In this document: in pieces, positions 48,415 to 64,000 of the stretch
Layout of the letters: every line of letters begins with the position of its first letter
How positions within the stretch are numbered: position 1 is the first letter of the stretch
Source: an uncultured Phycisphaerales bacterium
Lineage (GTDB): Bacteria > Planctomycetota > Phycisphaerae > Sedimentisphaerales > Anaerobacaceae
Assembly (NCBI GenBank): GCA_963718665.1
Contig: OY970359.1
Coordinates: forward strand, 1,536,001 to 1,600,000
Reading direction: 5' to 3'
Length of the DNA stretch: 64,000 bases
Position numbers and translations under genes: made by a program
The notes under the pieces: model-generated
What the model was told of the DNA's origin: nothing
Seen by the model: only the letters and a program-made list of their open reading frames with translations
Database searches by the model: none

Positions 48415-49182
48415 GTGAACAGAATAACCCTGAAAATACCGGAAGAATCGCCCGACTATGGTGAGTGCTCTGATTTCGTAGTTGGTCAAATTTCCAATAT
48501 CATAAAAAATGCTATAGACACTAAGAACAACCGCATTTTTATTCATACCAACTTAAAGCGAGGCCTACCCTTGGAGAATATCAACAAGGTTGCCGGTCCC
48601 TTTGTTGAAGCGTGGGCACTAGAGAAGTTTGAGGATATCGTTGCTGATCCAAAGAATCAGTATCAACTGATTAATGTCCAAGCAGGTCGAAGATTAGACC
48701 CCTTTGACATTATTCTACAATTCAAACGAAAGAAGAATAACAACCAATACGCATCAGCCAATATCGATGTTAAGGCGACATCGGAAGATATCAAGACATC
48801 AGGCCGAAGCCCCAACATTACCTCATATGCGAGAATTCGGACCGAATACTTGGGGGACCCTGATTATATTTTTGTGATCCTTTCACTTAAACATAGGGTA
48901 TATGGCGAGAGAGAGCCGAAGACTGGGATGACGAACGGTATTATGGAGGTTGTGGGGCAGTCGGTCTATGATTTGAAATTCATCGGTAAATCCGACATTA
49001 GTTACAATCCTGCTTTGGGCACAGGTCAGATTCAAATTCGTGATATCCATTACGTGGAAATTCAACGCCGCACTGCCCGTGAATTCATTAAGATACTTGA
49101 TGAGAAATTCATTCGTTCTCAAGGCAAGGATGTCTGGCTTGAAATGGCACGTAAAAACGAATGGGTTAAAGAGACGGAATGA
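48415..49182 (+). CDS. Probable type II restriction endonuclease (PD-(D/E)xK)
   Basis: GPFVE, DPFD...NIDVK..S...SPN motif spacing; ATGA overlap with the MTase gene. Confidence 0.75.
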   Translation: MNRITLKIPEESPDYGECSDFVVGQISNIIKNAIDTKNNRIFIHTNLKRGLPLENINKVAGPFVEAWALEKFEDIVADPKNQYQLINVQAGRRLDPFDIILQFKRKKNNNQYASANIDVKATSEDIKTSGRSPNITSYARIRTEYLGDPDYIFVILSLKHRVYGEREPKTGMTNGIMEVVGQSVYDLKFIGKSDISYNPALGTGQIQIRDIHYVEIQRRTAREFIKILDEKFIRSQGKDVWLEMARKNEWVKETE

Positions 49183-50042
49183 TCAAAACTAACCAGCTTA
49201 TTTGCGGAGACGCTTGTGTTGAGCTTGGTAAACTGCCAAGTGAAAGCGTTGATCTTGTTATCGCCGATCCCCCTTACAACCTTGGCAAAGATTATGGCAA
49301 TAATATAGATCTGAAGGCTTGGCATGAATACGAGGATTTTACCCGTAAATGGTTGTGGGAAATAAAACGCATACTAAAGTCCACAGGGACACTATATGTA
49401 TTTATGGGAGTACGATTCATTTCCAAATTATTTCTGATCCTTGATGAGGAAATGCATTTTATTTTTAACGGATGGATTACATGGCACTACACACAAGGAA
49501 TGGGAAGAAAGCAGGGATTTTCACCTCGCCATGAGGATATTTTATATTTCACTAAGACCGACGATTTTGTTTTCCACTTGGATGACGTAAGAATACCTCA
49601 GAAGTACTATCGCATGCGAAACAATATGCAAGGCGCAAACCCAGGTGATGTATGGGAATTCTCACATGTGCATTTTTGCAGTGCCGAGCGAGAGAAACAT
49701 CCAACACAAAAACCAGAGGCGCTTATCGAGCGAATGATTCTCGCGAGTTCCAGCAAAGGGGATATAGTTATAGATCCGTTTGTCGGGAGTGGAACTACTT
49801 GTCGCGTTTCACAAATTCTTGGTCGCAAATGGGTCGGTATTGATATCAATCCAGCTTATATCGAAATGACAAAAACGAGAATCTCAAAGCCTTACGATGG
49901 GTTTGATTCTTATGATCCACGCACGGAAAGAACTCCTCGCGATCTGCCTTCAATTACGGCCAATAAGCAGATGGTTTTTCTTGAGGAACACGGGAGCAGC
50001 CATTCACACTTCGCTCACAAATCTACGCAGGGCAAGCAGTAG
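49179..50042 (+). CDS. N4/N6 DNA methyltransferase (beta class)
   Basis: IADPPYN, HPTQKPEAL and DPFVGSGTT in beta order. Confidence 0.93.
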   Translation: MIKTNQLICGDACVELGKLPSESVDLVIADPPYNLGKDYGNNIDLKAWHEYEDFTRKWLWEIKRILKSTGTLYVFMGVRFISKLFLILDEEMHFIFNGWITWHYTQGMGRKQGFSPRHEDILYFTKTDDFVFHLDDVRIPQKYYRMRNNMQGANPGDVWEFSHVHFCSAEREKHPTQKPEALIERMILASSSKGDIVIDPFVGSGTTCRVSQILGRKWVGIDINPAYIEMTKTRISKPYDGFDSYDPRTERTPRDLPSITANKQMVFLEEHGSSHSHFAHKSTQGKQ

Positions 50043-52289: not shown

Positions 52290-53273
52290 ATGGCTGTTAA
52301 TCCGGGTGGTTATGGAGAGCATCGTTCGGCTCAGGTTCGCAGAATTCTGTATATATCTATAGTTGTGATTGTGGTGGCCGTGGTCGCAATAGCGGGATTT
52401 ATTCTTAAGCGCAGCCGGGGCGGCTCGCAGGAGGTTACGCCGGAGCCGCAGGCGAATACGACTGAGCAGGGTCAGCCGGCGTCGCCTGCGGTCGCAGCGA
52501 TGGATGCCAATGGTTCGGTTGTATCGACGCAGATTGCGCAGGCGATGGAGTTGTTGAATCAGCCGACGCCTAAAATTATCGAGGCGAGAGACCGGCTTAA
52601 TGAGCTTTTGCCCATGGCACAGGGACAGGAGCTTGTGTTTATCAAAGGCAAACTCGCAGAGTTGTCGGACAAGTGGCTGTTCAGCAAGCTTGTTTACCCG
52701 GAGGACAAGTTGACAGCCAGTTACAAGGTTGCTCCGGGCGATATGCTTTCGACAATCGGAAAGAAGCGCAATGTGCCCTATGAGATTTTGATGCAGATAA
52801 ACAATATGGCCAAGCCGGAAGCGCTTCAGTCGGGCGTGGCGATAAAGGTAATAAACGGGCCGTTCCACGCGAGGGTCTATCGCTCAACGTTTACGATGGA
52901 TTTGTATCTGCAGAATACTTATGTGAAGAGTTTCTCCGTCGGGCTTGGTAAGCAGGGTATGGAGACGCCGACGGGGCGATGGCGTGTGAAAGAGGGCGGC
53001 AAACTGATACAGCCAATCTGGACGGACCCGGTGAGCGGCAAGACGTATCATCCTGAAGACCCGGATTATCCGCTTGGTTCGCGGTGGATAGCGCTTGAGG
53101 GAATTGAGGGTAATGCAGTGGGCAAAAAGGGTTTTGCGATTCACGGCACGAAGAACCCGGAGCAAATCGGGACACCCGGTTCGCAGGGTTGTATCCGGCT
53201 GCACAACGGCAATGCGATACTGGTGTATAACCTTATGATGCCGGGGCAGTCGCTGGTGGATGTGGTTGACTAA
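52290..53273 (+). CDS. Membrane-anchored LysM + L,D-transpeptidase (YkuD) protein
   Basis: YKVAPGDMLSTI (LysM) and IHGT......G..GSQGCIRL. Confidence 0.92.
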   Translation: MAVNPGGYGEHRSAQVRRILYISIVVIVVAVVAIAGFILKRSRGGSQEVTPEPQANTTEQGQPASPAVAAMDANGSVVSTQIAQAMELLNQPTPKIIEARDRLNELLPMAQGQELVFIKGKLAELSDKWLFSKLVYPEDKLTASYKVAPGDMLSTIGKKRNVPYEILMQINNMAKPEALQSGVAIKVINGPFHARVYRSTFTMDLYLQNTYVKSFSVGLGKQGMETPTGRWRVKEGGKLIQPIWTDPVSGKTYHPEDPDYPLGSRWIALEGIEGNAVGKKGFAIHGTKNPEQIGTPGSQGCIRLHNGNAILVYNLMMPGQSLVDVVD

Positions 53274-53281
53274 TTATTATT

Positions 53282-53308
53282 ACCGCAGAGCACGCTGAGA
53301 CCGCAGAG
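53282..53308 (+). repeat. Nonamer triplet
   Basis: accgcagag cacgctgag accgcagag. Confidence 0.85.
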
Positions 53309-53340
53309 AAAAAATAAAAATAAAATCCGCGAATCAGGCG

Positions 53341-54354
53341 GTGAAAAAGGAATCCTGCGTTGTGAGCCAGGGAACGGTAAAAAACCATCGGAGGATAAAG
53401 TTATACGCACTGGGGGTGTCTGTTTTTGCGCATATCGTGGCGTTGTCGGTTTTCGCTGCGATAAAAATTTCGCAGTCGGCTCCTGTGCCGCTGCAAACGA
53501 CTACAACCGTGAGCATCAATCAGGCGATCAGGCTCGCTGACAGGCAGGCGGTTACGCCCAAGCCAAAGGTTAATCCCGTCGATAGCAAACCATTCGATTC
53601 TTCCGGCTCGCTCAAGGCGGACATCGTTCAGGGCAGACCAATAGTTAAAGCGGACGGAAAAGGAACACAGGCGAATGTTCGGCCTGTATTTGATGCGCCG
53701 AAAGAGGATAATCGGCGACAGGCGGAAGATGTAAAGCCGCCGATTCAGCAGGAAGTATCAAATGCGGCAGGCAGCGAGGAGTCGGCTGGCAATATCGAAT
53801 TTTTCGACAGCCCGGCGCAGGGCAGGAGGATTTGTTACGTCGTCGACTGCTCGGGGAGTATGCGGGGATTGTGGAATCGTGTGCGGGAAGAGCTTATTGA
53901 CTCGATAGGGAAACTGCCGCAGGATTATTATTTCTGCATGATTGTTTTTGGCGGGGGGAGCATACTGGAGACGGGCGGCGGGAAAATGGTGCGGGCAACC
54001 GAGCAGGCGAAACAAGAAGCATACGAATTTATCGCGGCTGTTGAGCCGAGAGGGGGGACAAACGCGGCGGATGCGCTGGAACGAGCGATTATGATTAAAG
54101 ACAGGACCGGCGTCGGGGCATCGGCGATATATTTTCTTACAGATGGTTTTGAATTGAGCGAGCAGGATGGTTCGCGTTTTGCGCACAAGGTCGCTACAAT
54201 ACACAGGAGTTTTGCGCCGAAGACGCAGATAAACACGATTGGCTTCTGGTGCACCGAGCAGGACGGCAAAGTGCTTGAGACAATAGCGAAAGAAAGCGGC
54301 GGAAAATTCGTGATGGTCGGAAATACAGGCGAACAAAAGGACGGGGACAATTGA
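53341..54354 (+). CDS. Single-pass membrane protein with a Pro-rich linker and C-terminal VWA (MIDAS) domain
   Basis: TM with SVFAH; YVVDCSGSM, GGTN, FLTDG, INTIGF and L..IA.ESGGKF. Confidence 0.88.
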   Translation: MKKESCVVSQGTVKNHRRIKLYALGVSVFAHIVALSVFAAIKISQSAPVPLQTTTTVSINQAIRLADRQAVTPKPKVNPVDSKPFDSSGSLKADIVQGRPIVKADGKGTQANVRPVFDAPKEDNRRQAEDVKPPIQQEVSNAAGSEESAGNIEFFDSPAQGRRICYVVDCSGSMRGLWNRVREELIDSIGKLPQDYYFCMIVFGGGSILETGGGKMVRATEQAKQEAYEFIAAVEPRGGTNAADALERAIMIKDRTGVGASAIYFLTDGFELSEQDGSRFAHKVATIHRSFAPKTQINTIGFWCTEQDGKVLETIAKESGGKFVMVGNTGEQKDGDN

Positions 54355-54369
54355 GGCGGGGATGCGGTA

Positions 54370-55218
54370 ATGAATAAAGGAATTTTGTTAAAGCTGTTTT
54401 TTATGGCGGCAGCTCTTGTTGTGGTTGTGATGATACTGATAACGGCCGCGAAGACAGATTTCAACGGCGCATCGGCGGGGCTGGCCAGGCCGAAAACGTA
54501 TTTCGAGCAGTTTTTTGTGGCGGGCGGACCGGTCGTCTGGTTTGTTCTTTTGCCGATGTCGATGGTTACGGTTTATCTGGCGACGGAGTATTGTTTTATC
54601 ATTCGCCGGAAAAAACTTTTGCCGGACGATATTTGCGGGACAATCGCCGATATTACGCGGCAGGCGGGCCTGGCTCAACTGCCAGGGCGGCTTGTCGAAA
54701 AGAGCGATTTTATCAGTGTTGCTGTTTCGGGCGCGGTTAGCAAGTGCGGCGGCGATTTGAATCGAATGCGGAGTATGGTTATTGAATCGCTCCAGGAGCA
54801 GGCGATGGCGCTATTACGCAGAATCGAGTGGATGAACATCATGGGCAATGTTTCGCCGATGGTGGGTCTGTTCGGGACGGTCCTGGGGATAATCAAGATG
54901 TTTAACGCGATGGCGGCGGTCGGCGGCCAGCCGCACCCTTCGCAATTGGCGGGCGGAATTTCAATCGCACTGGTAACAACATTGTGGGGACTGATGATTG
55001 CGATACCGGCGTTGACCATTCACGGCGTCTTCCAGAACCGAATTGAAATGCTCGCCAGTGAATCGGCTGAGCAGGCGGAAAAAACCCTTTCGCAAATAGC
55101 TTATACTTTAAGAGAGCAGAGGCGAACAGAGCAGCCCAAATCGGGCCTGGGACAGCCGATTGCCGAAATTCCGCCAAAATCGGGCGGGACAATTCGGACA
55201 TCGACGCTGTCGTCATAA
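54370..55218 (+). CDS. exbB: MotA/TolQ/ExbB proton channel family protein
   Basis: GGPVVW, SPMVGLFGTVLGII and GISIALVTTLWGL.IAIP. Confidence 0.9.
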   Translation: MNKGILLKLFFMAAALVVVVMILITAAKTDFNGASAGLARPKTYFEQFFVAGGPVVWFVLLPMSMVTVYLATEYCFIIRRKKLLPDDICGTIADITRQAGLAQLPGRLVEKSDFISVAVSGAVSKCGGDLNRMRSMVIESLQEQAMALLRRIEWMNIMGNVSPMVGLFGTVLGIIKMFNAMAAVGGQPHPSQLAGGISIALVTTLWGLMIAIPALTIHGVFQNRIEMLASESAEQAEKTLSQIAYTLREQRRTEQPKSGLGQPIAEIPPKSGGTIRTSTLSS

Positions 55219-55236
55219 TTTTTGCGGAAAGTATTT

Positions 55237-55710
55237 ATGGCTTTTGAGGTCCCAAAAAAATACCGCGGCACGGTTCAGACACTAAACGTGATACCGTTCG
55301 TGGATGTTTTGTTTCAGCTTATTATATTTTTCGCGCTGGCCTGCCAGCTCATCGCGACGGAGAATTTACAGGTTTACGTCCCCGACAACTGCAATTTTGC
55401 CAGTTCCGACGACCAGCGTGAGGCGCAGATTACTACCGTTACAGTTATGAAAGATGAGCGGGGCAAAAGCAGTTTTGCGGTAGGTTCTCAGAAAATTGCG
55501 TTGTCGAATTATGACCAAATGGCGGAGAAAGTCGCCGAACTATTGGATGCCCGGCTCAAAGACCTGCCCGCCAACGGCAGGGTCGTAACGCTGCGGATTG
55601 ATAAGGATATTCCATACGCTGAGGCCCAGTATGCTCTGGCCGCGGTTGCCAAAAGCACCGCAACTGACATACGCTTAGCGGCGATAAAAGAGTTCTCTGT
55701 TGCCAGATAG
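55237..55710 (+). CDS. exbD: ExbD/TolR family protein
   Basis: LNVIPFVDVLFQLIIFF TM with the conserved Asp; LRIDKDIPY. Confidence 0.88.
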   Translation: MAFEVPKKYRGTVQTLNVIPFVDVLFQLIIFFALACQLIATENLQVYVPDNCNFASSDDQREAQITTVTVMKDERGKSSFAVGSQKIALSNYDQMAEKVAELLDARLKDLPANGRVVTLRIDKDIPYAEAQYALAAVAKSTATDIRLAAIKEFSVAR

Positions 55711-55730
55711 TCCGCGTTCAAATCGCAAAC

Positions 55731-57005
55731 TTACGCGGATTCTTTTTTAGCGGGGAGTTGTCTTGCTGCGGAGAGCGGCACTGTTCCTTCGACGATGTCC
55801 TTTGTAATGACGTATTTAGCGGGTTTTGGCTCTTCGGGCAGTTGATACATCAAATCAGTCATCAGCGTTTCGGCAAGCGAACAAAGCGCACGGGCGCCGG
55901 TGGCGTGCTTGAGGGCCTTTTTGGCCAGCGCGTGCAGGGCGTCTTCGGTAAACGCCAATTCGGCGTTTTCCATTTCGAAGAATTTCTGATACTGCCTGAT
56001 GAGCGCGTTTTTGGGTTTTGTCAGGATATCGATAAGGGTGTTTTCATCGAGAGGCGCAAGGACCGTGATAACGGGCACTCGGCCGACAAATTCGGGAATC
56101 ATTCCGAATTCGATAACGTCTTCGGGGATGACCTGTTCAAGAACATTGGTCAGCTCGGCCTGCTCATCGGGCAGTTGCGACATTTCCGAACCGAAGCCAA
56201 TCATTTTTTTGCCTAAGCGTTTTTTGATGATGTTGTCGAGGCCGACGAACGTTCCGCCGCAAATGAAGAGGATGTGCGAGGTATCCAGCTGGATATAGGA
56301 TTGTTCGGGATGTTTTCTGCCTCCCTGGGGCGGGATATTGGCGATTGTGCCTTCGAGCATTTTCAACAGGGCCTGCTGGACGCCTTCGCCTGAGACGTCC
56401 CGTGTGATTGAGACGTTCTGGTTGGTCTTGCCGATTTTATCGATTTCATCGACATAGACGATACCTCGCTGTGCGGCTTCGAGGTCGAAGTCGGCGTTTT
56501 GTAAAAGGCGCAGGAGAAAATTTTCGACGTCTTCGCCTACGTAGCCGGCTTCGGTAACGGTGGTGGCGTCGCAGATTGCGAAGGGGACATCGAGGAATTT
56601 GGCGAGCGTCTTGGCGAGAAGCGTTTTGCCTGAGCCGGTGGGGCCAATGAGCAGGACGTTTGATTTATCGACTTCGACTTCGCTGTCTTTGCTGTCAACG
56701 TGAAGCAGGCGTTTGTAGTGGTTGTGCACGGCGACGGCGAGATATTTTTTGGCGTGCTCCTGGCCTATGACGTACTGGTCGAGGTATTCTTTTATGCCTC
56801 TGGGGTTCGGCAGTTTTTTGCTGCCGAAGGCCGACCGGCTGGCCTGCTTTTTGTTTTGCCTGATAATGTCGCCGCAAAGCCCGACGCAGTCGGGGCAGAT
56901 ATAGACCTTGTTCGGGCCTTCAATAAAGGTGTCCTGCTGGGTGCTTGCCCTGCCGCAGAAGCTGCATACGGCCCTTGGTTTATTGATATCATTTTGTTTT
57001 GCCAT
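55731..57005 (-). CDS. clpX: ATP-dependent Clp protease ATP-binding subunit
   Basis: CSFCG...ICPDC zinc finger, [28 protein letters not shown] and the IGF loop. Confidence 0.97.
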
Positions 57006-57082
57006 TGGTTATTCCAAGTCAGATTTAAGTTTCAGTGTTGTTATAGTTATATATTCTAAATCGGCTGAAGGTTCGTTGCAAC

Positions 57083-59143
57083 TTAATTGGCTGCGCAGTA
57101 TTGTTTCAGGATATCGAGTTTTTCGGCCCAGGGGGCGGGAATTTGGGGATAACTGCCGCAAAGCACGTCGATAGCATGGGCGATATTTTGCTTATCTGCC
57201 TGCGGTGATTTGGCAAGGCAGTCGAGTTCATAAAATTTGGCCTGCCACCAGTGCCAGCTTTTTTGAGTTTGTGCGGGTGTTTCGTTTCGCCGAAGCTCAG
57301 CGATTTTTGCCCAGAGTTTGGCGGATTGTTCGAATTTTTCCTGTGCCATCAGCAGTCGTGCCTGCACACGCAGCCAGGTTACGTCGTTTTCGTCAGGAGA
57401 AAAAGGCGTCAGGAAGATTTTTCCCTGTAAGATTGACGTCTCAGCAAAAAGCAGGTTGGTTTGGATATTATTGTTGGATTTGTGGGCAAATTCGGCAAGG
57501 GTGTCGCAATTTAGCAACAATTCGTTGAAGTCGTTGGCATCCTTTTGCCAGAGTTCGATTTTATCGATTGTGTCGGAAGCGATTTGAGCAGCCAATGCTG
57601 TCGATGAGTTACTGTCCCCGATTACGGCTTTCGACATATACCGAGCCGATTCTTCAAGTCGTCCCAATTGGTGCAACGCCTGTGCTTTGAACAGGTCATA
57701 TCGCAGTCCCGGCGTTTGTTCTGCGGTATCGAGCAGGTTCAGGACCTGTGCTGCGGAATCGTTGATGTCGCTGCCAAGAATTGTCCGGCAGTATATATCC
57801 ATCGCTTCGAGGCGAAGTAAGCGTTTTTGCTCATCCTGCCCCGTGCAATTGAGAACAAAGTTTCGCAGTTGTGGAATCGCCTCTTTGCGGCCTGCGTTAA
57901 TTTTTATTTTTAGAAGTTCGAGCGATGCCTTATCGTGCCAGATTGTTTTCGGGTCATTGGTCAGCCGGGTGAATATTTCGGATGCTTCCTGAGTTTTGCC
58001 GCAGTCGAATAAAATTTCACCATAAAGATACTGCATCTCTTCGGCCATTTTATCTGAGGTGATGTGGGCGTAGTTATCGAAGGCGGCGATTGCAAGATTG
58101 CAATCGACATTTTTTTGAGTGAAGCTGTCGTAAGCAAGCCGGGCGGCATATTCAGCGGTTCCGCGGACGTCGATATCGAGCAGCGGTTCTTTTTGCCGGA
58201 GCTGCAAATTGCTTGATTCCATTAAAAGTTCGATGGCTTTTCCCGGATCGGATTCGATGACTGACCTGCCCGTGATACAAAGGGTGCCGGGCGTTTTTAA
58301 TTTGTCGGCGTCAGCAATGGCAAGCAGCAGTTCTTTGTGTGCGGGAAAGTTTGTTGTCGAGGCGGCATACGCGACAAGCTCGGCGGTGAGGGGATTTAAT
58401 GAATTGAGGTCGGAGCCGGAAGAAAGGTCCGCGAGGATGATTTTGCCGAGGAAATTCCCTGTTTGCGAAGAATGTAACAAGGTATTTTGCAGTGTATCGG
58501 GAGCGTATTTATTCTGGAGGATTGCAAGCGTGAGGAGCATTTCGGGGTCGTCGGAACAATCACTTTTGGCAAGCGAGTCGGTGATATCATCAAGCTCGTT
58601 TGGTCCAGATGGGCCAAGATATTTTATTTTTTCGAGTGAGGCCTTGAGGAGAGCGCAGTGGCTCAAGTCGGATTTGGCCAATATTTTGAAAAGCTGTTGT
58701 TCGGTTTCGCGGTTGCCGGCTATTTGTGCGAGATAGTAGTCGATTTCGAGTTTACCGGTTTGTGTATTAGTGAGGTCTGCGGCGAGTTTACGCCACAGGC
58801 CCGTTTGGCCGAACAGGGTTTCCCAGTCGTCTTTCTGGTATGACTCGATTGCCTGTTTCATAGCGGACTGGGTATTCGCGATTTGCTCAAGGTCGGCTGA
58901 CGTCTGCTGTGCGACCTTGCAGAGTGCATCTTTATCCTGCGGATTCAGAAATCGGCCTGAGTATTCATACTGCATTCGTATTATGAAGGTCTGCGTGAAG
59001 AACGAGTTGTAAGTTTGTTTTGCCTTTTGAGCGGCGTCATTTATATCCTGAACGGTCGGCAGAGAATCGGCGGCAATGGCAGGCAGGGAGATTGTCAGCA
59101 GCACAAGCGGCAGAAAATATCTTTTGCTAATCGGACTTATCAT
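57083..59143 (-). CDS. Exported alpha-helical (TPR-like) protein
   Basis: Signal peptide; Ala/Leu-rich helical repeats such as QYLYGEILFDCGKTQEA; WWQAKFY near the C-terminus. Confidence 0.7.
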   Translation of the reverse strand: MISPISKRYFLPLVLLTISLPAIAADSLPTVQDINDAAQKAKQTYNSFFTQTFIIRMQYEYSGRFLNPQDKDALCKVAQQTSADLEQIANTQSAMKQAIESYQKDDWETLFGQTGLWRKLAADLTNTQTGKLEIDYYLAQIAGNRETEQQLFKILAKSDLSHCALLKASLEKIKYLGPSGPNELDDITDSLAKSDCSDDPEMLLTLAILQNKYAPDTLQNTLLHSSQTGNFLGKIILADLSSGSDLNSLNPLTAELVAYAASTTNFPAHKELLLAIADADKLKTPGTLCITGRSVIESDPGKAIELLMESSNLQLRQKEPLLDIDVRGTAEYAARLAYDSFTQKNVDCNLAIAAFDNYAHITSDKMAEEMQYLYGEILFDCGKTQEASEIFTRLTNDPKTIWHDKASLELLKIKINAGRKEAIPQLRNFVLNCTGQDEQKRLLRLEAMDIYCRTILGSDINDSAAQVLNLLDTAEQTPGLRYDLFKAQALHQLGRLEESARYMSKAVIGDSNSSTALAAQIASDTIDKIELWQKDANDFNELLLNCDTLAEFAHKSNNNIQTNLLFAETSILQGKIFLTPFSPDENDVTWLRVQARLLMAQEKFEQSAKLWAKIAELRRNETPAQTQKSWHWWQAKFYELDCLAKSPQADKQNIAHAIDVLCGSYPQIPAPWAEKLDILKQYCAAN

Positions 59144-59714
59144 TTTTCGGCGACTCGGTCCGGCTGCGGCTCGGCGTCGCTATTACTCCTGTAACCTCAT
59201 CGGTGCCTTCGCCGAGACGAGTCATCTGGAACGTGATATCGGTCAGGCCCATTCCGTAAAGGACGTTATAAATTTGGGCGAGGTTTTCCCATTTGACTTT
59301 GCCCGCACATACGATTTCGACGGGGTCGGCGGCGTATCGCTTTTGTTCGAGCAGGCACTCTCTGGTTTGCTCCATCAGCGAAGCGAGGCCCCGTTCGGGG
59401 TTTTGGGAGGATATATTGACGGCACGGGATAAGCCGATTTGCACACGGCAGCCGGCGTTTGTCGGCGTGATTTGAATTGTCAGCGGCTCCGGCCTGATGG
59501 AGGTTTGGGTGACCGTGCCCGCGCTGGCTACGGGCAATTGAAGCGGGAGAAAATCCTCCTGCGGACTCCATCTCGCGGCGACGAGAAAGAAAATCAGCAG
59601 AAGGAAAATCATATCAATCATCGGCGCGATTCGCAGGCCGATGGCCGACCGGCGCAGACCGACTGTCCTGCTTAGTATGCTTTTGTCTTTATTTGTGCGT
59701 CCAAGGATTTGCAC
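59127..59714 (-). CDS. exbD: Second ExbD/TolR family protein
   Basis: IAPMIDMIFLLLIFFLV TM; GGAGG RBS; overlaps the TPR-like gene. Confidence 0.85.
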   Translation of the reverse strand: MQILGRTNKDKSILSRTVGLRRSAIGLRIAPMIDMIFLLLIFFLVAARWSPQEDFLPLQLPVASAGTVTQTSIRPEPLTIQITPTNAGCRVQIGLSRAVNISSQNPERGLASLMEQTRECLLEQKRYAADPVEIVCAGKVKWENLAQIYNVLYGMGLTDITFQMTRLGEGTDEVTGVIATPSRSRTESPKNDKSD

Positions 59715-62897: not shown

Positions 62898-64000
62898 TCA
62901 ATAACCGGGCTTGAGGAACAGGTAATATAGTCGGCCTTCCTGGTATGTTTGGCCTGCGAGTTTGCCCGCCGAGTCGCCGATTCCGAGGTAAATATCGCAT
63001 CTGCCTGCCGCGCGGATAGCGCCGCCTGTATCCTGGTCGAGGGCGAAGCCGGCGAACGGGTCGGTATAAGTCATATTGCCTATCTGGCGGGGGAGATTTG
63101 TTGTGAAAAACGTAAGAGCACCGCGGGGGAAGATGGATTTGTCGGTGGCTATGCTTCTGTAAGCGATGACCGGCTCATTCAGACTGCCGTGAGGTCCGCC
63201 TTGTTCTGCCTGCCTGAAAAATACGAAGCGGGGGTTAATCTGGGTGTATTGGCGGACAAGCGCCGAGTTGGCTTTGAAATAATCTATAAGCGATGCCAAA
63301 CTGACACGGTCCGCTGGTATTTTCCCTTCGTTGATGAGCTGTTTGATGATGCTTTTATATTCGTAGCCGTTGTTGGCGGCGTAGCCGTAAGTTACAAGCC
63401 GACCATCGGGCATGCGAATGACCGCTGAACCCTGAACGTGGGCGATATATACCTTGAAGGGGTCGTCGAGCCAGACGATTTCGTTTCCGGCGAGTATATT
63501 GGAATTTTCGATTTCAGCGCGTGCCGGGTATGGTGTAATTTGGCCGTCGGCGCCTTTTCTGCCGAGAATTTGGCCGTTTTCGCCTTTGACTAAGTCATTG
63601 GGCTGGCGGTAGAGGGGATACTGATATTGTGCTGTTTTAACGGTTGAGCCGGAGAAGATGGGGGTGTAGTAGCCGGTGAACAGAACGGTGCCTGCGTCAT
63701 CGCAGCCGACGGACATATAAACGTCGAATTTCTGACGGATGGCGTCGTTGAGCTGACTGCCCGTCAGACCTGATTTGAGCAGGTCTTTAAAGGCAGTAAG
63801 GGATTTGACGACCTGTTCGTGTGTGATGTCTGCGTATGGATAAAATTGGTTGCTCGACGGTTTTTTAAGGTAGTCGAGCGAATTATCAATGGCTGTGGAG
63901 AGATTGGCCAGATTGTGACAGGCGCTGGTGAAATCCGGGATTTCAGCGGGATTGGTAATTTTTCGCAAGGCGAGCTGACCCGGGGCAAGGGGCTTGTCGT
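62898..64000 (-). CDS. mltA: MltA-family lytic murein transglycosylase; 5' end off the window
   Basis: FTGYYTP, HVQGS, NPRFVFF, SIATD and DQDTGGAIR..GRCDIYLG. Confidence 0.92.
   Translation of the reverse strand, partial: DKPLAPGQLALRKITNPAEIPDFTSACHNLANLSTAIDNSLDYLKKPSSNQFYPYADITHEQVVKSLTAFKDLLKSGLTGSQLNDAIRQKFDVYMSVGCDDAGTVLFTGYYTPIFSGSTVKTAQYQYPLYRQPNDLVKGENGQILGRKGADGQITPYPARAEIENSNILAGNEIVWLDDPFKVYIAHVQGSAVIRMPDGRLVTYGYAANNGYEYKSIIKQLINEGKIPADRVSLASLIDYFKANSALVRQYTQINPRFVFFRQAEQGGPHGSLNEPVIAYRSIATDKSIFPRGALTFFTTNLPRQIGNMTYTDPFAGFALDQDTGGAIRAAGRCDIYLGIGDSAGKLAGQTYQEGRLYYLFLKPGY

Follow-up and report, generated by a model that had tools for sequence, protein, structure and literature searches.

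A probable VWA-headed transducer encoded with one ExbB, two ExbD proteins and a TPR-like protein: a split and jointly inherited gene set in a planctomycete of the Sedimentisphaerales

The stretch of DNA described herein (the window; 64,000 nucleotides, positions 1,536,001 to 1,600,000 of contig OY970359.1, assembly GCA_963718665.1) belongs to an uncultured Phycisphaerales bacterium, placed by GTDB in the order Sedimentisphaerales, whose genome consists of a single contig of 2.61 Mb that is 94.6% complete. It contains a gene set of the Ton/Tol type. On the plus strand, a gene for a membrane-anchored von Willebrand factor A (VWA) protein, vWA, is followed by exbB and exbD1; on the minus strand, a second exbD (exbD2) and a gene for a tetratricopeptide repeat (TPR)–like protein face them across clpX, with all these genes lying within 53341-59714 (Table 1). 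A preliminary description of the window had given the open reading frames (ORFs), order and strands of its four named genes (an L,D-transpeptidase gene, vWA, exbB and one exbD) correctly; its gene set was right but incomplete, with exbD2 and the TPR gene missed. It had also proposed a new type of motor. The locus is, however, a member of the vWA transducer class that was predicted, and modeled with AlphaFold 3 (AF3), by Williams-Jones et al. (2025; PMC12204202).

Table 1. Features of the locus, in positions of the window
Feature	Position	Strand	Basis
VWA-headed transducer (vWA), 337 aa, single transmembrane helix, linker and VWA domain	53341..54354 (start may be 53362)	+	Pfam, AlphaFold2/Foldseek, alignment
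S27-x3-H31, predicted docking motif inside the transmembrane helix (53407-53463)	53419..53433	+	Sequence, alignment, genome ORF count
Low-confidence linker, 111 residues, with candidate motor box T53-I59 and conserved PKPKV at 53557-53571	53464..53796	+	Model, alignment
VWA domain with complete metal ion–dependent adhesion site (D169, S171, S173, T240, D268)	53824..54324	+	Pfam, structure model, alignment
ExbB/TolQ-family (MotA_ExbB) motor subunit; S64, T170, T204, P213 invariant	54370..55218	+	Pfam, genome search, alignment
ExbD1 with channel Asp (ORF open from 55222)	55237..55710	+	Pfam, genome search, alignment
ExbD2, heterologous second ExbD with channel Asp	59127..59714	-	Pfam, genome search, alignment; lost with the vWA gene
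TPR-like protein, 686 aa, all-helical, signal-peptide-like N terminus	57083..59143	-	Pfam, iterated profile, structure model; lost with the vWA gene
clpX, unrelated gene between both halves, retained when both go	55731..57005	-	Pfam, locus comparison
Membrane-anchored LysM + YkuD L,D-transpeptidase (ldt), conserved neighbor in a rarA-ygfA-ldt run	52290..53273	+	Pfam, gene order

The VWA protein consists of an N-terminal anchor, a linker and a VWA domain. Its lone hydrophobic helix, residues 23-41, contains S27-V-F-A-H31 and no Asp. The linker has the length first given for it (111 residues, 28 of them charged); with 11 Pro among these residues, it is only moderately Pro-rich. The VWA fold is confirmed by Pfam and by an AlphaFold2 model searched with Foldseek. 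For conservation, the query was aligned with 130 relatives, which carry the source label Sedimentisphaerales, yielding 131 rows down to 24% identity (12 of the 120 close matches listed and 118 of the 150 distant matches listed; short fragments excluded). Herein, H31 is kept in all 130 rows that have a residue at this position and S27 in 125 of the 130, and the residues of the metal ion–dependent adhesion site (MIDAS), D169, S171, S173, T240 and D268, are kept in 130, 129, 130, 115 and 130 of the 131 rows, respectively. The single helix with SVFAH and the complete MIDAS are thus borne out, as is the conservation of SxxxH that had been named as a check. An N-terminal hydrophobic helix is predicted for 340 ORFs of the genome that reach a length of 250 aa, and the VWA protein alone among them has S-x3-H in this helix, so the motif does not owe its presence to chance. 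Within the linker, PKPKV is conserved (K74 in 119/131 and P75 in 129/131 rows); the AlphaFold2 monomer model shows no strand at this stretch or at T53-I59, the two candidate motor boxes, though both are conserved in the alignment.

The motor subunits keep the channel Thr and Asp residues noted earlier: S64, T170, T204 and P213 of ExbB, the second and third being the channel Thr residues, are identical in 17 of 17 aligned sequences, and the channel Asp is invariant in 29 of 29 sequences for ExbD1 and likewise invariant for ExbD2. In a tree, ExbD2 clusters with the second exbD of unsplit operons in related families. In such operons, exbD-exbD precedes a long TPR gene, to which an iterated profile ties the TPR protein of the window. 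The predicted structure of this protein, an all-helical solenoid, matches only generic helical solenoids, with TM-scores of at most 0.30.

The five genes (vWA, exbB, exbD1, exbD2 and the TPR gene) are co-inherited. Forty other genomes of the family were compared, many of them incomplete; with an orthologue cut-off of E < 1e-60, 21 are vWA-positive and 19 vWA-negative, six of the latter being at least 90% complete. An ExbB orthologue (E < 1e-70) is found in 19 of the 21 positive and none of the 19 negative genomes, and in the two positives without it the vWA gene is located at a contig end. Two or more ExbD proteins are likewise found in 19/21 positives versus 0/19 negatives; any ExbD at all occurs in only three negatives, two of these being Ton-type and the third (G162) having a contig that ends where the vWA block would start. 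An alignment search detected no TPR orthologue in the four vWA-negative genomes tested (4/4; positive control, 1.7e-293). Loci could be compared from 20 of the 21 positive and 18 of the 19 negative genomes. The full facing arrangement is present in 12 vWA-positive loci, and in nine vWA-negative loci the transpeptidase gene faces clpX, separated from it by no more than one ORF. Four of these nine (L126, L129, L134 and L135) show kor genes beyond clpX and no TPR gene or exbD2. Because these four are devoid of both vWA-exbB-exbD1 and TPR-exbD2, two deletions flanking a retained clpX are indicated. Twelve negatives form one clade, and others stand beside positives, e.g., G179 with G195 (Shimodaira–Hasegawa support 99); the branching suggests about three to five independent losses of the module, the second tree, a concatenated one of the family, carrying no support values. 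As a separate observation, 16 of the 19 vWA-negative genomes (loci L118-L135) have no ExbD match and are diderm-type planctomycetes apparently without a Ton/Tol-type motor.

Gene order points the same way beyond the family. The vWA gene lies directly before exbB in 18/20 own-family loci and in 14/18 loci from two sister families (18 genomes), and the best-matching vWA gene carries S/T-x3-H in all 18 sister-family genomes. One sister family has an extra, long-branched exbB paralogue without adjoining exbD (L049:11445, L090:7080, L091:6713), which is absent from the genome under study.

Genome-wide, there is one MotA/ExbB-family match and there are two ExbD matches, both in the window. The genome yields no match to TonB_C and no separate match to a MotA-type stator, and its matches to TonB receptors, PD40 and OmpA domains all lie outside the window, which agrees with the early statement that the window holds no tonB, tolB, pal or TonB-receptor gene. 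Coupling of the VWA arm to ExbBD, the core of the preliminary description, is hence very likely, as judged from motif conservation, the lone ExbB, the lone SxxxH anchor, the absence of TonB_C, gene order and joint loss. Elsewhere in the genome, the only match to a TonB-receptor barrel is split over two ORFs (L001:7646-9944; G000:C1 ~231.6-233.9 kb) and followed by YfiR and histidine kinases. The frame split is probably an assembly error, because the contigs of three runs have two extra bases there. Two coiled-coil lipoproteins with an OmpA-type wall-binding domain (G000:C1:306086-306865 and 2278804-2279463) are possible substitutes for Pal. As sole target of the arm, the OmpA-domain lipoproteins were rejected, since they are kept in 3/3 motor-losing genomes tested.

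In the class described in PMC12204202, an SxxxH motif anchors the vWA transducers, whose genes accompany tolQ, two tolR genes and a TPR gene. The class is reported for Planctomycetes, with Tichowtungia aerotolerans as type example, and its members combine a transmembrane helix with an SHLS motif (stated for "many" of them), a Pro-rich or disordered linker of ~100 residues that carries a motor box (a β-strand), and a vWA head. The AF3 model of that study docks the transducer via the His, and no deletion phenotype was known to its authors. A literature search, with most subscription papers outside its reach, returned no paper on the class besides this one. The present locus shows the same three-part protein with Ser and His in the transmembrane helix, a linker of similar length and a C-terminal vWA domain, together with a tolQ-like, two heterologous tolR-like and a TPR gene. 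It differs in several respects: vWA precedes exbB, clpX separates the two facing halves of the set, a single transducer is encoded instead of two, and the genome has no other motor. In addition, a shorter TPR gene, which other Phycisphaerae have between vWA and exbB, was not detected in the genome, generic TPR matches aside. The second vWA family of PMC12204202, with an Asp in a trans-pore helix and no exbD, was rejected as an assignment, as the helix here has Ser and His but no Asp and two exbD genes are present. Compared with Ton (ExbB-ExbD-TonB), the ExbB and ExbD families, the channel Thr and Asp, the Ser-x3-His anchor and the extended linker are shared; in contrast, TonB_C is missing, the two ExbD proteins are different, and in relatives that possess Ton, its genes form an operon of their own. 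With Tol-Pal (TolQRA, TolB, Pal and CpoB), the locus has in common the type of motor, a TPR partner reminiscent of CpoB and a possible role in envelope upkeep, but a VWA head takes the place of the C-terminal domain of TolA, and the PD40 and OmpA-domain matches are unlinked.

A lead to function comes from Planctopirus limnophila, for which a transposon-directed insertion-site sequencing study has been published (PMC10632474). Its main text, as far as accessible, does not mention ExbD, TolQ or vWA; among the essential genes in the accessible part of its Fig. S3 are one COG0811 gene (Plim_3131), one COG0848 gene (Plim_3133) and five COG2304 vWA genes including Plim_3001. These were mapped via orthologues, going from a published primer to a Planctomyces sp. 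metagenome-assembled genome and the genomes of its genus (Planctopirus-like). In this genus, two genes match the VWA alignment, one of them located ~10 kb upstream of polA, which is Plim_3011 in PMC10632474. The product of this polA-linked vWA gene has 365 aa, with S-G-C-L-H in its transmembrane helix, a linker and the sequence DCSGSM; the gene after it codes for a TPR protein of the type that adjoins vWA in Phycisphaerae. Gene lengths were recovered from the insertion index, i.e., insertions over gene length. In the accessible data, the index of Plim_3001 resolves to 8/1097, equal to 365 aa, and the lengths of its neighbors fit too (369, 114 and 434 aa); the mapping of Plim_3001 to the SxxxH-vWA homologue hence rests on gene order and exact length. 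Polarity does not explain its essentiality, because the neighbors are heavily hit (0.107 and 0.148 in the same data). By the same approach, the essential ExbB and ExbD (274 and 170 aa) map to a plsC-linked exbB-exbD-exbD-X cluster. The ExbB of this cluster and the TPR-linked ExbB of the Planctopirus-like genus fall into one group, at 100/98, in a tree built without a Ton or Tol outgroup. The Plim_3001-type homologue is a reciprocal best match in the genome under study. As far as this source extends, a related SxxxH-vWA arm is suggested to be essential in P. limnophila, where it would use the essential motor (Plim_3001 with Plim_3131/3133).

In two clusters of the same genus, exbB-exbD-exbD is followed by a gene for a membrane protein without a Pfam match (L107:10222-11415 and L109:10040-11074), one such protein mapping approximately (392 versus 393 aa) to Plim_3134, listed as essential in the accessible data. 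The genome under study yielded no homologue of this gene, the fourth in the essential cluster of Planctopirus type. Another head on the same anchor occurs behind a lone exbD at L111:7233-9518, where an SxxxH-anchored protein has a squalene-cyclase-like domain.

In ExbBD and TolQR, an ExbB pentamer around a pair of ExbD subunits conducts protons through a ring of Asp and Thr residues. For the locus described herein, the parts and their co-inheritance are observed, and each binding step in what follows is one that we infer. The ExbD pair would be ExbD1-ExbD2 within the ExbB pentamer, with proton flow causing rotation. By analogy with TonB and TolA, S27 and H31 would dock at the rim of ExbB, at S64 of transmembrane helix 1 (TM1), with the signal passing on to P213 of TM3, and a linker strand (T53-I59 or PKPKV) would thread onto the periplasmic dimer of ExbD. 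At the distal end, integrin-like MIDAS chemistry may take over from the β-strand addition of TonB and TolA, in that an acidic residue of an outer-envelope target would complete the coordination of the MIDAS metal. The TPR protein would act as periplasmic adaptor or scaffold and not as obligatory target. The least certain step is the output, which may be a Tol-like upkeep of the outer membrane. Altogether, the five genes probably form one proton-driven motor whose arm would pull on an outer-envelope protein via the VWA head, with envelope upkeep more likely than nutrient uptake. Upkeep is favored for two reasons. A homologue appears to be essential, in that an SxxxH-vWA homologue and an ExbB/ExbD set map to genes listed as essential in the accessible P. 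limnophila data, and the occurrence of the module does not follow that of TonB receptors, 2/20 genomes of the order retaining it in the absence of any plug match. As the actual output of the motor, upkeep is put forward tentatively.

Several points weigh against this reading. By the definitions in the accessible part of PMC12905483, TM1 of ExbB keeps the conserved Ser (S64) but not the conserved Trp, and the anchor agrees with SHLS in its first half only, with F38 at the Leu position (F or L in 121/130 rows) and K42 at that of the last Ser (mostly K/R). Related genomes are not independent, 12 of the vWA-negatives belonging to one clade. The module is missing from many members of the family, including the six that are at least 90% complete, and is therefore not universally essential. 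In 4 of the 18 sister-family loci, vWA stands away from exbB, the orthologous exbB-exbD1 being located elsewhere. A search with a single protein as query detected the TPR gene in 12 of 20 genomes of the order but not in the other eight, all of which keep the motor; as these eight form one branch of the ExbD2 tree, the motor can persist when the TPR gene is lost or diverges. The essential exbB/exbD cluster of the Planctopirus-like genus contains no vWA gene, and the Plim_3001-type homologue shares just 28% identity over 178 aa, with the tree leaving orthology unsettled. Finally, the single exbB row found for Verrucomicrobium spinosum in the accessible part of PMC12283558 is non-essential.

Among other explanations, the arm could assemble, extract or secrete a specific surface or outer-membrane structure needed for some lifestyles. 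Repeated clean loss within one family would suit such a dispensable, specialized output, and MIDAS domains are established to grip protein ligands; however, in the loci examined the module is accompanied by no candidate substrate gene, and the homologue maps to a gene listed as essential in the accessible P. limnophila data, which makes this explanation unlikely. The Agl-Glt system of Myxococcus xanthus combines one TolQ-like and two TolR-like subunits with TPR proteins and a VWA domain, all of which the locus shares. A surface-motility or adhesion engine with this identical parts list was proposed in PMC12204202, and the lack of a separate MotA-type stator match would agree with it. The VWA protein here is fixed to the inner membrane, whereas CglB is an outer-membrane lipoprotein adhesin according to the accessible source; moreover, the loci examined show no recurrent Glt-like or otherwise gliding-like genes, and essentiality is not expected of a motility gene. 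Such an engine is accordingly quite improbable.

Still more doubtful is that the VWA arm replaces TonB and energizes TonB-dependent receptors. The one receptor-barrel match in a genome without TonB_C would fit, and in a comparison of 20 genomes of the order, plug matches are present in five of the seven that have no TonB_C match. However, a separate exbB-exbD-tonB operon exists besides the vWA gene in the other 13, and plug matches occur in 18 of the 20, the remaining two having the module but no such match. Besides, the receptor here lies within a YfiR/histidine-kinase cluster, and the VWA and TonB C-terminal folds are unrelated. The L,D-transpeptidase gene had been taken as a hint at envelope remodeling, and the motor could drive or position this enzyme. 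It is located directly upstream of vWA in 17/18 sister-family and 19/20 own-family loci, on the same strand with a gap of 67 bp, but it is retained in 17 of the 19 own-family genomes without the vWA gene, travels with rarA and ygfA, and does not adjoin vWA in other Phycisphaerae families sampled. Because of its retention, the transpeptidase is probably a neighbor only, and a functional tie to the motor is very improbable. That the VWA protein is itself a mere genomic neighbor uncoupled from ExbBD, as the four unlinked sister-family loci and the incomplete SHLS motif might suggest, can be dismissed almost entirely in view of the invariant His and of a loss shared with exbB and the two exbD genes.

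Further observations concern the surroundings of the locus. An MltA lytic transglycosylase is encoded at 62898-63968, upstream of the kor genes and on the same strand as exbD2. A restriction-modification-like pair, consisting of a nuclease-like and a DNA methylase-like ORF as judged by translation, lies at 48415-50042, upstream of rarA, and methylase-like ORFs recur beside clpX in the relatives L129, L135, L141, L144, L149 and L152. Scans of promoters (12 versus 9.4 by chance) and terminators (24 versus 14.7) gave counts near chance, tblastn against plasmids gave no match, a PF13103 search was uninformative, as no control matched either, and no RNA holder is listed for the single stretch searched.

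The class has so far been a computational prediction (2025). The present analysis adds to it a five-gene unit defined by joint loss from two separate places around a retained clpX, and takes the transpeptidase off the short list. It also adds an essential-gene lead, whereas PMC12204202 knew no phenotype. Because the homologue maps to an essential gene of a genetically tractable planctomycete, what these arms pull on is directly testable, and profiling of sister genomes that have or lack the module could lead to the target. The findings may also bear on how planctomycetes manage an outer membrane without Tol-Pal. More speculatively, the vWA motor might join Ton and Tol-Pal as a third system that carries energy across the envelope. 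In planctomycetes, where Pal is missing, it would then serve a core task of the outer envelope that is essential in P. limnophila, with a metal-dependent catch in place of β-strand addition.

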